A DNA stretch of 64,000 bases from an uncultured bacterium (GTDB lineage: Bacteria; Planctomycetota; Phycisphaerae; Phycisphaerales; SM1A02): NCBI GenBank assembly GCA_903919715.1, contig CAIXJC010000075.1, positions 34,363-98,362 of the forward strand. The letters are read 5' to 3'. Shown one piece after another: positions 26,198 to 55,466 of the stretch. Under the pieces are notes generated by a model. It saw nothing but the letters and a program-made list of their open reading frames with translations. It did no database searches and was not told the DNA's origin. Both the position numbers and the translations under genes were made by a program. Position 1 is the first letter of the stretch. The number at the start of each line of letters is the position of its first letter.

Positions 26198-26871
26198 GAA
26201 TTCGCCTTTGGACGAAATGCTCGAAGGCTTGAGCCTTCTCGGACATACACGTCGTACCGAACAAGCTTGCTCTTGAAAACAACATCGGGCTCTGCGTAAA
26301 GAGGCTCTGCATGATGCGGCCGCTTCACGACGATTCGGTCCCACTTCGCAGCGACGGCGGCAAGAAAGAGCGCTGACGAATCCAGATCATCGCCAACCGC
26401 ATCGCGCACTAAGCGAATCGGCTTTGGTGCGAGCGCACTTCCTGGTTTGGGGGGATACATCGGATCAAGATAGATGGTCGCCCACGATTCGGACGATGAT
26501 TGCAAAACATCCCACGCATTTGCTTGACGAAGTTCAATTCTACTTGCGATTGCAAGTAATCGCGAATCTGCTTTCGCTCGATCAACGCCGTCACTGAGAA
26601 CACGAAAGACCAAAGGCGATCGTTCGACCGCTGTGACTGAAAAACCAGCCGCTGCGAGAATCCAACTATCACCGCCAAGTCCAGCGGTTGCGTCGAGCAA
26701 ACGTCCTCGGTCCCCACACGCGCGGACGAGCGGCTGCGAAGAGATTCCCCGCAGCGTGACGCGCCGAAAGTCAACGGAAGCACCGTGGCCGGCTTGCTCA
26801 CCGACGGCGATCAATTCCATCCGTCCATCCGGATCGACTTCCGCCGCAATTGTCTGTTTCGAACCACTCAT
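26194..26871 (-). CDS. rsmJ: 16S rRNA (guanine1516-N2)-methyltransferase, RsmJ/YhiQ family
   Basis: LLDATAGLGGDSWILAAAGFSVTAVERSPLVFRVLSDGVDRA...IYLDPMYPPK...RIVVKRP matches the RsmJ motifs (DATAGLGRD, YLDPMFP, VVVKRP). Confidence 0.8.
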   Translation of the reverse strand: MSGSKQTIAAEVDPDGRMELIAVGEQAGHGASVDFRRVTLRGISSQPLVRACGDRGRLLDATAGLGGDSWILAAAGFSVTAVERSPLVFRVLSDGVDRAKADSRLLAIASRIELRQANAWDVLQSSSESWATIYLDPMYPPKPGSALAPKPIRLVRDAVGDDLDSSALFLAAVAAKWDRIVVKRPHHAEPLYAEPDVVFKSKLVRYDVYVREGSSLRAFRPKANS

Positions 26872-26894: not shown

Positions 26895-28286
26895 ATGCAC
26901 ACCGCCACGATCGCTCCAGTCTTTTCTAGCCTCCTCGACATGATCGGCAATACGCCGATGCTGGAAATCACCAAGATCGACACGGGGCTTTGCAGACTCT
27001 TTGTCAAGCTGGAAAATCTCAACCCAGGCCAATCAATCAAAGATCGCATCGCAGTTGCCATCATTGATTCCGCCGAGCGTTCAGGAAAGTTGAAGCCTGG
27101 TGGACGGATCATCGAAGCGACCGCAGGCAATACTGGTATCGCTCTCGCACTGATCGGCGCACTCAAGGGATACAAATTGACCGTCGTGATGCCAGACAAG
27201 ATGAGCGATGAAAAGATGGCGCACCTTCGAGCCATGGGCGCTGAAGTCGTCTTGACGCGATCCGATGTTGCCAAGGGACATCCTGAGTATTACCAAGACA
27301 TGGCTCAGCGAATGGCGGATGAAGATCCCAATTCGTTCTATGTCAATCAATTTGCCAACGAGGACAACACGCGCGCTCACTTCGAAACCACGGGACCAGA
27401 AATCTGGGAACAGATGGGCGGAAAAATTGATGCGTTTGTTGCAGGAGTGGGCTCGGGCGGCACAATCGCGGGCGTTGGCGCATTCTTGAAATCGCACAAC
27501 CCAAACTGCGAAATCATTCTTGCCGACCCACGCGGATCTATTCTCGCACCGCTCGTAAACGAGGGAAAAACAGTTGAAGCTGGATCGTGGCTCGTCGAAG
27601 GAATCGGCGAAGACTTTGTTCCATCCATCCTTGATCTGAAGGTGATCCATCACGCATACACCGTGACGGATGCGGAAGCATTTGCTGCCGTGCGCGAACT
27701 ACTGCGCAAGGAAGGGATCTTGGCGGGATCGAGTGTCGGCGTGCTGATGCATGCTGCACTTCAATATTGTCGAGCACAGAAAACCCCCAAGCGAGTCGTC
27801 ACGCTGATCTGCGATAGTGGCGCAAAATATCTCTCGAAGATGTACAACGATTTCTGGATGCGCGATCAGGGATTTCTTCACCGTGAAAAGAACGGCGACC
27901 TGCGCGATCTGATTACGCGCCGCCATGACCGTGGAGAGGATTTCGTTTTGCAGCCGACACTTCCGCTGAGTTTGGCGATCCGCAAGATGCGAATGTTTGG
28001 CGTGAGCCAGATGGCGGTGCTTGATTCGAAAGAGGCACTGGTGGGAATATTGGATGAGAGCGATGTCCTCTTAGCCCTCGCTCGCAATCCTCACGCGAGC
28101 ACAGACCAAGTGAGCGCGCACATGACCAGCCGAGTCGAGACGATCCATCCATCGAAATCCGCTGACGACTTGATGCCGATTTTTCGAGCGGACCGCGTCG
28201 CAGTAGTTCATGATGGCAAGAACTTTTACGGCCTGATCACCAAGATTGACATGATTCACCACTTGCGACTCCAAGTGGCGTCGTAA
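26895..28286 (+). CDS. cystathionine beta-synthase-type PLP enzyme with a C-terminal CBS-domain pair
   Basis: IGNTPMLEI...NPGQSIKDRIA (PLP lysine) and GNTGIALA, then two CBS-like repeats (VSQMAVLDSKEALVGILDESDV; RVAVVHDGKNFYGLITKIDM). Start taken at MHTATIA. Confidence 0.85.
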   Translation: MHTATIAPVFSSLLDMIGNTPMLEITKIDTGLCRLFVKLENLNPGQSIKDRIAVAIIDSAERSGKLKPGGRIIEATAGNTGIALALIGALKGYKLTVVMPDKMSDEKMAHLRAMGAEVVLTRSDVAKGHPEYYQDMAQRMADEDPNSFYVNQFANEDNTRAHFETTGPEIWEQMGGKIDAFVAGVGSGGTIAGVGAFLKSHNPNCEIILADPRGSILAPLVNEGKTVEAGSWLVEGIGEDFVPSILDLKVIHHAYTVTDAEAFAAVRELLRKEGILAGSSVGVLMHAALQYCRAQKTPKRVVTLICDSGAKYLSKMYNDFWMRDQGFLHREKNGDLRDLITRRHDRGEDFVLQPTLPLSLAIRKMRMFGVSQMAVLDSKEALVGILDESDVLLALARNPHASTDQVSAHMTSRVETIHPSKSADDLMPIFRADRVAVVHDGKNFYGLITKIDMIHHLRLQVAS

Positions 28287-54157: not shown

Positions 54158-54391
54158 TTACGCGCCGCCTTCAGCTGGGCGGATTTTTCCAATGACATTC
54201 TTGGTCGGGTCGATCGCTCCAGCAAGAATCTGCTCTGCGACTTCCTTGCGATGCACGGCGACCTCACGTGGAAACTCAAATGCAATGCGCACACGATCAC
54301 CCTTGATCGACGCAATACGAACAATCCCAATCGGGGACGCTGGGTTCCCGATGACGACTTCTTCACCTTCGCGTCGTGTGATGACCAACAT
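54158..54391 (-). CDS. csrA: carbon storage regulator CsrA (77 aa)
   Basis: MLVITRREGEEVVIG...GDRVRIAFEFPREVAVHRKEV matches CsrA (MLILTRRVGETLMIG...VRIGVNAPKEVSVHREEI). ATG 54391 has GGAGG 10 nt upstream. The track ORF has a 13-aa extension. Confidence 0.9.
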   Translation of the reverse strand: MLVITRREGEEVVIGNPASPIGIVRIASIKGDRVRIAFEFPREVAVHRKEVAEQILAGAIDPTKNVIGKIRPAEGGA

Positions 54392-54593
54392 AGTGCGCGG
54401 ACCTCCTGCCCTTTGACGGTGGGACTTCACCCACCGACTTGCTCAGCTCGCCTCGGACGCACCGTGCGTCCTCCATGCGAATCCTTGGATGACTTTCATC
54501 GACCAAGCGACTGACCTACTTGAAGGGTACATCTCGTTCGGATGCATCCCTTTCTTCAATTCACAAATTACAAAAATACCCCGTTATCGGATC

Positions 54594-54631
54594 AAAAAAA
54601 AACCCCCCGCGTCGGGCCAGTGACGCGGGGG
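54594..54631 (-). terminator. strong intrinsic terminator between mraZ and csrA
   Basis: On the minus strand: CCCCCGCGTC-ACTGGCCC-GACGCGGGGG followed by T9 (plus-strand A-run 54594-54602). Confidence 0.8.
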
Positions 54632-54712
54632 CGACGATAATAATCGAGTTGAACGAGTCCAACTCAACTATTCGTACGGAAGTGCCATCCTGGCCGAACC
54701 GTACGACCCTTG

Positions 54713-54737
54713 CGGGTCATCCATGACCCGTTTTTTT
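54713..54737 (+). terminator. terminator-like hairpin plus T7 on the + strand (same palindrome as one GGA hairpin)
   Basis: cgggtcat-cc-atgacccg followed by ttttttt. No + strand gene precedes it. See findings. Confidence 0.3.
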
Positions 54738-54828
54738 GCTCGACTCGCGCATCCATGCACAAATCGAGATTTGTATATGCGCTACGCCGTCCGTGCCGTA
54801 GCGAAGTCCAAGTGGCGCAGGCGATCCA

Positions 54829-55299
54829 TCACCGTGCTCCACCCGACCGTGTGTTCATGAGTTGACTGGCCTGACGAGAAAGTTCGCTCGCAGAAGAATT
54901 CCGTTCCTTCTCTTGAGCTTTCCATGTCGCCGAGGCAATCAACTCCAAGTGATCTCGAACCCCCAAAATCGTGACGACTCCCGCCAATCCGAATCTCGAC
55001 AAAAGTCGCTCTGGAATTCGAATGCGTCCCGCGGAATCGAGCGGACATCGTGCAGCTTGACTGAAGAATGATCGCTCGAAACGCCGAAGTACTTCGTCGC
55101 CGATCAATGATCCGCCGTGCCCCTTGGCAAGTTCCTCGAATGTCAGATTGGGCCAAAGAGTCAGAACCTCGTCCGCTCCAGGCACTGCAACGAACGAGTC
55201 CCCGTTGACCGCAGGATTGAGGACTTCCCGCAACTCGCTTGGAATTGCGAGGCGCTGCTTCGAGTCGAGACTGTGTTCGTATTCGCCGAGGAAGAGCAT
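54829..55299 (-). CDS. mraZ: transcriptional regulator MraZ
   Basis: MLFLGEYEHSLDSKQRLAIPSELRE and the second half-site LDSAGRIRIPERLL are the two DxxxR SpoVT/AbrB-like repeats of MraZ. Start at 55299. The track extension to 55386 would cover its own promoter. Confidence 0.9.
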   Translation of the reverse strand: MLFLGEYEHSLDSKQRLAIPSELREVLNPAVNGDSFVAVPGADEVLTLWPNLTFEELAKGHGGSLIGDEVLRRFERSFFSQAARCPLDSAGRIRIPERLLSRFGLAGVVTILGVRDHLELIASATWKAQEKERNSSASELSRQASQLMNTRSGGAR

Positions 55300-55326
55300 T
55301 GGTTTGGTCCATTTGGAGTCGCATTC

Positions 55327-55357
55327 AATATACCCACTACGCCCCACAATGCAACAC
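55327..55357 (-). promoter_or_regulatory. mraZ promoter TTGCAT-N16-TATATT with GTGGG direct repeats (MraZ-box-like) in the spacer
   Basis: On the minus strand: aaaaGTGTTgcattGTGGGgcgtaGTGGGtatatt. -35 TTGCAT (55354-55349), -10 TATATT (55332-55327). Repeats GTGTT, GTGGG, GTGGG at 55357-55353, 55347-55343 and 55337-55333, with an exact 10-bp period. Confidence 0.5.
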
Positions 55358-55466
55358 TTTTCAACAAAATTAATGTTTTTCGCCACACAACCATTTGAGT
55401 TTTATGGTCCGAGAACTTTCGTCGTCCAATATTCAATGATATAAACCATTGCATAGCAAAGATTTG

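Follow-up and report, generated by a model that had tools for sequence, protein, structure and literature searches.

Behind mraZ, a gene of an uncultured planctomycete of the order Phycisphaerales, about 240 nt of non-coding sequence precede csrA, and the question raised by this locus is whether they encode an RNA that sequesters the CsrA protein encoded next door. To answer this question, we analyzed a stretch of 64,000 nucleotides (GenBank assembly GCA_903919715.1, contig CAIXJC010000075.1, positions 34,363 to 98,362), hereafter called the window, together with related loci. A first-pass annotation had proposed a candidate CsrA-sponge RNA at 54594-54833 on the minus strand, consisting of six GGA-presenting hairpins and a U9 terminator directly upstream of csrA. 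We confirmed this observation with some corrections, and the element is probably a decoy that soaks up CsrA, a kind of RNA characterised so far mainly in Gammaproteobacteria.

A predicted chain of GGA-presenting hairpins behind mraZ

All coordinates of the element were checked against the sequence and were confirmed. The features of the locus, all on the minus strand, are as follows.

55327..55360 (-), likely promoter of the transcript that carries the RNA (transcription start inferred), with three MraZ-box-like direct repeats at 10-nt period, AAAGTGT (55360-55354), ATTGTGG (55350-55344) and GTAGTGG (55340-55334), embedded in TTGCAT-N16-TATATT (-35-like 55354-55349, -10-like 55332-55327).
54829..55299 (-), mraZ coding sequence (156 aa), with the stop codon UGA at 54831-54829.
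54820..54833 (-), hairpin H1, GGUGA[UGGA]UCGCC, whose 5' arm contains the mraZ stop codon.
54780..54803 (-), hairpin H2, CGCUACGG-C[ACGGAC]G-GCGUAGCG, whose GGA loop reads CACGGACG.
54739..54768 (-), hairpin H3, a 13-bp stem with GCAUGGAUGC at the tip (CAUGGAUG).
54713..54730 (-), hairpin H4, CGGGUCA[UGGA]UGACCCG (CAUGGAUG).
54673..54705 (-), hairpin H5, outer stem CGUACGG/CCGUACG around the inner hairpin GCCA[GGA]UGGC (CCAGGAUGG).
54639..54672 (-), hairpin H6, a variable hairpin with the short form GAGUUG[GACUCGUU]CAACUC at 54665-54646 and a 15-bp minimum free energy (MFE) form that pairs the GGA.
54594..54631 (-), intrinsic terminator, a 10-bp GC stem with an 8-nt loop, CCCCCGCGUC[ACUGGCCC]GACGCGGGGG at 54631-54604, followed by G and U9 (54602-54594).
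54392..54593 (-), csrA upstream region and leader, with a conserved block CCGATAACGG..TTGTGAATTG (possibly a promoter of unknown type), then a structured leader with GCAUGGAGG (54477-54470) in an internal loop and the hairpin GGGC[AGGAG]GUCC (54411-54399), which presents the Shine-Dalgarno sequence 8-12 nt before the AUG.
54158..54391 (-), csrA (77 aa), with its AUG at 54391, 203 nt after the U-run.

When the region was folded with RNAfold, the hairpins were reproduced with an MFE of -110.2 kcal/mol, against -81.9 +/- 4.8 for shuffled sequences (z = -5.95), and 0 of 200 shuffles were as stable. The partition function gave unpaired probabilities of 0.7-1.0 for the GGA of H1-H5 (0.71-0.99 in H1 and 1.00 in H5), but only 0.0-0.3 for H6. 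Thus, five hairpins are robust GGA presenters, not six as the first-pass annotation had claimed. The seventh GGA (54809) sits in a linker and is not conserved.

The element contains 7 GGA against 3.9-4.4 expected and only 1 TCC, while AUGGAU occurs 3 times and CANGGANG also occurs 3 times (54788-54795, 54750-54757 and 54718-54725). Within this one sequence the statistics are only moderate, since the probability of at least 3 CANGGANG in 235 nt is about 9e-5, or about 0.05 after correcting for the whole window, and CANGGANG is not enriched window-wide (45 found against 39.7 expected). However, in a fold-and-count scan of all 2126 overlapping 240-nt windows on both strands, this locus was the single top scorer, and 3 of the 6 windows with >=3 GGA loops overlap it. 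A simple counter of stems with GGA loops was too permissive, as a quarter of all GGA qualified, and was replaced by the MFE-based census with antisense and shuffle controls. Two other regions were flagged by the counters and rejected: 27576-27825(+) lies inside a 478-aa ORF, and 26345-26860(-) is not structured (z = -0.41). A small ORF in the RNA (41 aa, 54717-54842) was also rejected, given that indels that are not multiples of three and the stem-compensating substitution pattern argue against it.

The mraZ product was identified by a Pfam search (MraZ, 4.5e-22, two stretches), and its homologues are 154-160 aa. It is an orphan gene, not followed by rsmH or other dcw genes, and its neighbours are a flavin reductase (divergent), csrA, a NifU-like gene, a gene for a 502-aa protein and dapF. 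The csrA product (Pfam CsrA, 3.8e-15) aligns end to end with Yersinia and E. coli CsrA and with P. fluorescens RsmE, including over its whole core with the solved RNA-bound RsmE (2jpp), and keeps MLxxTRR, GxxVRI and VHRxE. Its identity across the order is 70-98%.

Conservation of the element in Phycisphaerales

To better describe the element, we compared it with 21 related Phycisphaerales species (together with the present sequence, 22 sequences, designated clade A). GGA is invariant in the H1-H5 loops in 22 of 22 species, while the flanking N positions vary. The consensus CA-N-GGA-N-G corresponds to the ANGGA-in-hairpin-loop target of CsrA proteins (PMC7366521); here H2 reads CACGGACG, H3 and H4 read CAUGGAUG, and H5 reads CCAGGAUG. 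H1 is identical or near-identical in 21 of 22 sequences. Both-side changes were found in 5 of 9 pairs of H2 (MAFFT alignment), 8 of 13 pairs of H3 and 6 of 7 outer pairs of H5, and in H4 one pair changes from U-A to C-G in 5 species. Loci L020 and L021 carry an extra GGA hairpin inserted at H3. The stem of H6 also covaries (13 of 15 pairs with both-side changes in the model-fitted alignment), but its GGA is present in only 17 of 22 sequences and is often paired, so H6 is a structural hairpin and a doubtful CsrA site.

In a MAFFT alignment of the 22 species, which was not fitted to any structure, 95.8% of cells are paired, against 35-47% when partners are slid, and 13 pairs have both-side changes against 3-7 slid (71 cells against 3-18). 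In the model-fitted alignment, 93.2% of cells are paired against 32-42% slid, and 38 pairs have both-side changes against 11-16, with no shuffle out of 500 reaching the observed values. The terminator hairpin is nearly invariant, loop included, in 22 species and is unique in the window, while distant clades keep GCCCCCGCG...CGCGGGGGC followed by AUUUUnUUU. The invariant terminator loop (CUGGCC) is complementary to H5 (GGCCAG), but by inspection this complementarity is not kept in relatives, and such a pairing was rejected.

More distant relatives carry larger versions built on the same plan. A second, more distant clade (clade B; 15 species, MraZ about 60% identical) has a 350-nt version with its own conserved GGA loops and 29 pairs with compensatory changes. 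In a census of 77 mraZ-downstream spacers, there were on average 3.9 GGA-loop hairpins on the mraZ strand, against 0.13 on the opposite strand and 0.44 in shuffles, and 66 of 77 spacers had >=3 on the sense strand but 0 of 77 on the antisense strand. A covariance model found the element only directly 3' of mraZ, on the mraZ strand, in close and distant loci, and found no second copy in the window. In metagenomes, 22 of 22 true matches to the terminator lie between mraZ and csrA, and the one exception (locus L108) is a chance match inside a high-GC ORF. Two short contigs examined for transcript ends extend past the element and were uninformative. The longest contig carrying a MraZ homologue and the top 120 CsrA homologues are all MAGs.

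Notably, csrA lies next to mraZ in all 74 loci that extend far enough. In 15 of them csrA is flipped, yet the RNA stays on the mraZ strand and starts at the mraZ stop codon. The tight physical link is therefore to mraZ, and the phrase "upstream of csrA" in the first-pass annotation needs correction. That annotation had also considered an mraZ 3'UTR or a 3'UTR-derived sRNA as a fallback, which is the better fit, since H1 contains the mraZ stop codon, leaving no room for a promoter, and the last 150 nt of mraZ show no conserved block beyond protein constraint. The only strongly conserved promoter-like block lies upstream of mraZ, where GTGTTGC-N3-GTGGGGC-N3-GTGGG followed by TATA(T/G)T is conserved in clade A and at least 2 GTGKK repeats are present in 77 of 79 loci.

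Candidate function of the RNA and rival explanations

Given these results, we suggest that the element is the 3' part of the mraZ transcript, about 240 nt of non-coding RNA that starts at the mraZ stop codon and ends at a strong intrinsic terminator. It presents five CsrA-type binding sites (A-N-GGA in hairpin loops, 30-38 nt apart), enough to hold two to three dimers of the CsrA encoded in the adjacent gene, and would thereby act as a decoy that lowers free CsrA. Its level would be set by the MraZ-box promoter of mraZ and by RNA turnover or processing, and it may be cut out as a stable 3'UTR-derived sRNA. We give this reading a probability of about 0.6, as transcription from the mraZ promoter, CsrA binding, titration and control by MraZ are inferred without any expression, binding or genetic data, and all relatives are uncultured MAGs. 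In addition, with five sites in 240 nt the site density is lower than in CsrB, RsmY or RsmZ, and the RNA is physically part of an mRNA. The csrA leader carries GGA sites of its own, one over the Shine-Dalgarno sequence; of its 33 predicted pairs 8 have both-side changes, and GCA-N-GGA-R and CAGGAGGUCC are conserved in 19 of 19 sequences. This suggests that free CsrA probably also represses its own translation, which is likewise inferred.

An alternative, which we consider less likely, is that the RNA is a cis-acting, CsrA-responsive 3'UTR, in which CsrA binds the hairpins to control stability, termination or translation of the mraZ mRNA, while titration of the CsrA pool is negligible. The element is contiguous with mraZ and follows mraZ, not csrA, when gene order changes, and a conserved AUGGAC sits about 10 nt before the mraZ AUG in 18 of 22 clade-A species. 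In P. aeruginosa, RsmA alters the levels of the PA4570-rsmW co-transcript (PMC4950607), and the C. jejuni flaA mRNA is both target and titrator (PMC4894983). However, five to seven conserved high-consensus sites appear to be more than known single-mRNA CsrA targets use, and arrays of this kind seem to be the hallmark of decoys. The GGA near the mraZ start is absent in loci L006, L007, L020 and L021 and in about half of all loci, and outside clade A it is often just an ordinary AGGAGG, which makes it weak evidence that CsrA regulates mraZ. The strict conservation of csrA adjacency is also not needed for an ordinary target.

It is unlikely, though possible, that the same decoy is made as an independent sRNA gene, with a promoter inside the 3' end of the mraZ coding region driving a separate transcript of about 240 nt. 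Internal promoters of this type probably occur for other 3'UTR sRNAs, the RsmW authors likewise discussed a possible internal -35 (PMC4950607), and promoter motifs of Planctomycetota are poorly defined, so that absence from a sigma-70 scan is weak evidence. However, the last 150 nt of mraZ show variation at synonymous positions and no conserved nucleotide block beyond what the conserved protein tail explains, H1 overlaps the stop codon in 21 of 22 clade-A species, and the only strongly conserved promoter-like block is the one upstream of mraZ.

More doubtful still is a structured RNA with a different partner or role, such as a platform for another RNA-binding protein or a ribonuclease. The terminator hairpin, including its 8-nt loop, is invariant for no reason that the CsrA model explains, and H6 and other non-GGA hairpins are conserved in clade B (GCGC[UUCG]GCGC and GCCAUGGUUGGC). 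Nevertheless, the only invariant loop nucleotides across five hairpins are exactly A-N-GGA, csrA is the one gene always adjacent apart from mraZ, and, as far as we are aware, no other protein recognises GGA loops. Lastly, a chance cluster of hairpins or merely a long terminator region, which the borderline motif statistics of the single window might have allowed, is for practical purposes refuted by the order-wide compensatory substitutions, the invariant loops, the strand asymmetry and the top rank of this locus among 2126 windows.

Relation to known Csr systems

No Rfam family matches the element, and we found no description of it in the literature. At permissive E-values the best hit of the locus was RsmW (20.9 bits against a gathering cut-off of 52, E = 0.87), aligning H3, H4 and H5, while at gathering thresholds nothing turned up in the window or in 11 related loci except two tRNAs elsewhere. 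RsmW of Pseudomonas aeruginosa (RF02809; PMC4950607) is a 3'UTR-derived decoy that binds RsmA. It lies behind a small upstream ORF with no terminator between the ORF and the RNA, has 7 GGA motifs of which 3 sit in loops, ends in the shared terminator and is not under a GacA-type promoter. In the present locus, likewise, the only terminator on the RNA's strand is at 54604-54631. There is, however, no significant sequence or structure homology between the two, the phylum differs, the host gene here is the transcription factor mraZ, and the element is adjacent to csrA itself and conserved across a whole order, whereas RsmW appears to be specific to P. aeruginosa (PMC7366521).

With the CsrB/CsrC/RsmX/RsmY/RsmZ sponge sRNAs (Rfam clan CL00106), the element shares a chain of short hairpins exposing A-N-GGA, a Rho-independent terminator, and a copy number of GGA hairpins that varies between relatives (3-7 per locus). 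Those sRNAs are independent genes driven by GacA/UvrY-type two-component regulators through an upstream activating sequence (TGTAAG-N6-CTTACA). No match to this sequence with <=3 mismatches lies anywhere near the locus, and the 6 matches elsewhere in the window are no more than chance. Here the promoter carries MraZ boxes, and the RNA is fused to a coding sequence.

We also compared the locus with the CsrA-FliW partner switch and the flaA mRNA of Campylobacter jejuni (PMC4894983) and with CsrA-FliW of B. subtilis (PMC7652899), all non-gammaproteobacterial CsrA systems. An mRNA that binds CsrA can also titrate it. The CsrA encoded here has a C-terminal extension with an invariant G-x-IRPA motif, and extended C-termini are associated with the protein antagonist FliW (PMC7366521); a protein antagonist may exist as well. 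No fliW or flagellar gene is next to csrA in the window or in locus L081, and the RNA is a dedicated non-coding array rather than a 5' leader. By sequence, this CsrA scores better against gamma-type CsrA/RsmE (E about 3e-9 to 4e-8) than against the FliW-bound Geobacillus CsrA 5dmb (3.7e-4) or B. subtilis CsrA 1t3o (6.6e-4).

The promoter resembles the MraZ operator and autoregulated mra promoter (Eraso et al. 2014, as summarised in PMC8475190) in that direct repeats of the GTG[G/T] type at 10-nt period overlap it, and the first repeat, AAAGTGT, matches the Mollicutes box AAAGTG[T/G]. It does not head a dcw operon, and the only cargo downstream of mraZ is the GGA-hairpin RNA. We tentatively speculate that Phycisphaerales may carry a compact, self-contained Csr circuit with no described counterpart, in which an orphan MraZ, detached from the cell-division operon in a lineage that probably lacks FtsZ, autoregulates a promoter whose only other product is a CsrA decoy RNA in its own 3'UTR. 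That decoy would set the activity of the CsrA encoded next door, which in turn would repress its own translation. If so, this would be the first RNA antagonist of CsrA outside Proteobacteria, and it would give MraZ, whose physiological role has long been unclear, a defined output in the control of a global post-transcriptional regulator.

In lineages where no RNA decoy of CsrA has been found, such as B. subtilis and C. jejuni, the protein FliW does the job (PMC7366521, PMC7652899, PMC4894983). CsrA is nevertheless very common in Planctomycetota (PMC13443453), where nothing is known about how it is controlled. The element supplies a covariance model for finding further copies in complete Phycisphaerae genomes, and it would provide a concrete, cheaply testable RNA. 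A decoy RNA supported by covariation and conserved across an order in this phylum would show that RNA mimicry of CsrA targets has arisen, or been kept, far outside Proteobacteria, and would tie the conserved but enigmatic regulator MraZ to the Csr network.

Genomic context and predicted fold of the mraZ-csrA spacer

To place the candidate CsrA-binding RNA in its genomic context, we first annotated the region around it. In this freshwater Phycisphaerales (Planctomycetota) sequence, mraZ, a 437-nt spacer and csrA lie in a row on the minus strand, and the element covers the first 240 nt of the spacer. The features concerned are as follows:

55327-55360 (-), promoter-like sequence with three MraZ-box-like direct repeats
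55308-55313 (-), AUGGAC motif about 10 nt before the mraZ AUG
54829-55299 (-), mraZ (Pfam MraZ, 4.5e-22)
54594-54833 (-), array of predicted GGA hairpins (H1-H6) ending in a terminator
54604-54631 (-), terminator hairpin
about 54550-54590 (-), conserved block between the terminator and the csrA leader
54392-54530 (-), structured csrA leader
54158-54391 (-), csrA (Pfam CsrA, 3.8e-15)

The neighbouring genes are a divergent flavin reductase, a convergent NifU-like gene, a gene encoding a 502-aa protein without a Pfam match, and dapF followed by arginine-succinyltransferase pathway genes. No rsmH, dcw, flagellar or fliW gene is found nearby, and mraZ is an orphan with no rsmH or dcw genes behind it.

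The first-pass annotation had described a chain of six GGA-presenting hairpins between mraZ and csrA, and all its coordinates and counts were correct. RNAfold on 54594-54833 (-) returned the same chain of hairpins at -110.2 kcal/mol, against -81.9 +/- 4.8 for dinucleotide shuffles (z = -5.95). However, the partition function showed that the GGA triplets of H1-H5 are unpaired with probability 0.7-1.0, while the GGA of H6 is mostly paired (0.0-0.3), because a longer 15-bp version of H6 is preferred. The array therefore has five good sites, spaced 35, 38, 32 and 32 nt apart, rather than six. In this one sequence the motif statistics alone are only borderline after correction, about 0.05 window-wide, and CANGGANG is not enriched in the window as a whole. 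Nevertheless, when all 2126 overlapping 240-nt windows on both strands were folded, this locus ranked first for hairpin loops containing GGA. Two other places flagged by cruder counters are a coding region and an unstructured stretch. The terminator scan also called a plus-strand terminator at 54712-54731 (+), which is simply the antisense of H4 followed by the complement of the A7 run between H3 and H4; it is probably incidental, since the NifU-like gene has its own terminator-like site at 54165-54182.

Conservation and covariation of the GGA hairpins

To determine whether the element is conserved, MraZ homologues were aligned and the alignment was used to retrieve 80 loci, one per GTDB species (designated by L numbers). 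All relatives are metagenome-assembled genomes. Several of the related records carry implausible organism names (Singulisphaera sp. GP187, Chitinophaga, Rhodospirillaceae), although their mraZ-csrA loci are clearly Phycisphaerales-like, and these are probably placeholder or mis-assigned taxonomy in the deposits. Notably, csrA lies 0.3-0.8 kb beyond mraZ in all 74 loci that extend far enough, on the same strand in 59 and on the opposite strand in 15. In these 15 species csrA is inverted and convergent with mraZ, yet it stays adjacent and the GGA-hairpin RNA remains on the mraZ strand. Every spacer is rich in GGA on the mraZ strand and poor in TCC, including those where csrA is inverted.

The closest clade comprises the window plus 21 species, with MraZ 67-89% identical. 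For this clade, a plain MAFFT alignment with RNAalifold recovered H1, H2, H3, H4 and the terminator, and 13 of 37 pairs showed compensatory double changes. On that unfitted alignment, 95.8% of cells are paired against 35-47% when partners were slid by 1-3 columns, and 71 cells have both-side changes against 3-18 in the slid controls. Next, a covariance model was built from the eight closest sequences, using the window's hairpins as the structure, and it re-aligned all 22 sequences at 86-291 bits. On that alignment, which leans towards the model, 93.2% of cells are paired against 32-42% slid, 38 of 69 pairs have both-side changes against 11-16, and none of 500 shuffles reached the observed values.

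The most telling result came from inspecting the hairpins one by one. GGA is present in the loops of H1-H5 in 22 of 22 species, while the nucleotides on either side of GGA vary (CA-N-GGA-N-G) and the stems are rebuilt with different base pairs. H6 is a covarying hairpin whose GGA is dispensable (17 of 22). The element also varies in copy number and carries indels: L020 (2378-2650) and L021 (3464-3734) have gained an extra GGA hairpin within the H3 region, and a 12-nt insertion lies between H1 and H2 in L005 and L012:3467-3717. In contrast to the other stems of the RNA, all of which covary, the terminator hairpin CCCCCGCGUC[ACUGGCCC]GACGCGGGGG is identical, loop included, in 20 of 22 species, the exceptions being one compensated pair in L006 and one loop base in L016. 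This near-perfect invariance, for which we have no explanation, suggests an additional sequence-specific role.

The model also hit loci with MraZ only 53-63% identical, at 15-50 bits, always immediately 3' of mraZ on its strand. Single-sequence folds of these more distant loci showed 3-7 hairpins with loops such as [AGGA], [AUGGAC] and [ACGGAUC], followed by a long hairpin GCCCCCGCG...CGCGGGGGC and a U-rich tract; distant clades keep the outer GCCCCCGCG/CGCGGGGGC of the terminator. A separate alignment of 15 such species gave a 350-nt consensus with its own conserved GGA loops and 29 pairs with compensatory changes. In a uniform census of 77 spacers, the mraZ strand carries on average 3.9 GGA-loop hairpins, while the opposite strand carries 0.13 and shuffled sequences 0.44; 66 spacers have three or more on the sense strand, and none does on the antisense strand. 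Further, an exact-match scan of the metagenome collection for the terminator core found 23 contigs. In 22 of them the match lies just downstream of mraZ, and csrA follows in the 21 that extend far enough (the remaining contig, L086, ends before csrA would be reached), while the 23rd is a chance match inside an unrelated high-GC ORF. No second copy of the element exists in the window.

The mraZ promoter region, the csrA leader and the CsrA protein

H1 begins two nucleotides before the mraZ stop codon and contains it, so there is no intergenic space for a promoter. The last 150 nt of mraZ vary at synonymous positions and show no extra conserved block. The strongly conserved promoter-like sequence lies upstream of mraZ and reads GTGTTGC-N3-GTGGGGC-N3-GTGGG followed by TATA(T/G)T, which amounts to three direct repeats (GTGTT/GTGGG/GTGGG) at a 10-nt period overlapping a TTGCAT-N16-TATATT promoter. 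Repeats of this kind occur upstream of mraZ in 77 of 79 loci. They resemble the MraZ boxes through which MraZ represses its own promoter, and the first repeat, AAAGTGT, fits the Mollicutes box AAAGTG[T/G] (PMC8475190). The simplest model is one transcript running from this promoter through mraZ and the GGA array to the terminator, in which case the RNA is an mraZ 3'UTR that may be processed into a stable sRNA, although an internal promoter cannot be excluded without 5'-end data. In addition, the AUGGAC before the mraZ AUG is conserved in 18 of 22 species of the closest clade, out of frame with mraZ and at the position of a ribosome-binding site. It could be a CsrA site on the mraZ leader, but it is not conserved in other clades.

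On the csrA side, the terminator is followed by the conserved block (CCGATAACGG..TTGTGAATTG), which may be a csrA promoter of unknown type. Sigma-54 promoters have been predicted for csrA in Planctomycetia (PMC12316311), but no clean GG-N10-GC is visible here. The csrA leader that follows is itself a conserved structured RNA with two conserved GGA elements, namely GCA-N-GGA-R in an internal loop, and the hairpin GGGC[AGGAG]GUCC, which presents the Shine-Dalgarno sequence just before the AUG. Since this appears to be the arrangement through which E. coli CsrA represses its own translation, autoregulation is a reasonable inference.

The CsrA protein aligns over residues 1-63 with Yersinia and E. 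coli CsrA and with P. fluorescens RsmE, which was solved bound to a GGA hairpin, and it keeps MLxxTRR, GxxVRI and VHRxE. It scores better against these gamma-type proteins (3e-9 to 4e-8) than against the FliW-bound Geobacillus CsrA (3.7e-4). Residues 56-77 contain a C-terminal extension, a variable linker followed by an invariant G68-x-I70-R71-P72-A73 motif seen in 16 aligned homologues, which may be a partner-binding peptide. Given that extended C-termini are associated with FliW partnership (PMC7366521), a protein antagonist may coexist with the RNA.

Comparison with known CsrA antagonists and the candidate role of the RNA

Reviews describe RNA antagonists of CsrA as characterised mainly in Gammaproteobacteria, and FliW as the antagonist in species where no sRNA has been found (PMC7366521, PMC7652899). 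CsrA is noted as widespread in Planctomycetota without any known control mechanism (PMC13443453), and full-text searches for CsrA together with Planctomycetes, Phycisphaerae or mraZ found nothing relevant. By architecture the present element is a Csr/Rsm-type decoy, while by homology it is not a member of any Rfam family. The best hit, RsmW, scored 20.9 bits against a threshold of 52, and nothing passed gathering thresholds in the window or in 11 related loci. The GacA/UvrY-type upstream activating sequence is also lacking. The differences from RsmW are the phylum, the host gene (a transcription factor with its own operator), the fixed genomic pairing with csrA, and conservation across a whole order.

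The first-pass annotation had interpreted the hairpin chain as a candidate CsrA-sponge RNA, and this interpretation is supported as far as sequence analysis can go. Four lines of evidence point to an RNA that binds CsrA: an array of five invariant A-N-GGA loops on rebuilt stems, the spacing of the sites, the terminator, and the unbroken linkage to csrA. The main rival, which we consider unlikely, is that CsrA binding serves to control the mraZ mRNA itself. An independent sRNA gene with an internal promoter is less likely again, a different protein partner is more doubtful still, and chance can be dismissed as very improbable. Given the number and quality of the sites, we judge a titrating decoy to be the most likely role of this RNA (probability about 0.6), although its transcription, CsrA binding and sequestration of CsrA are inferred from sequence alone; this role does not exclude control of the mraZ mRNA, as the C. 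jejuni flaA mRNA shows (PMC4894983).
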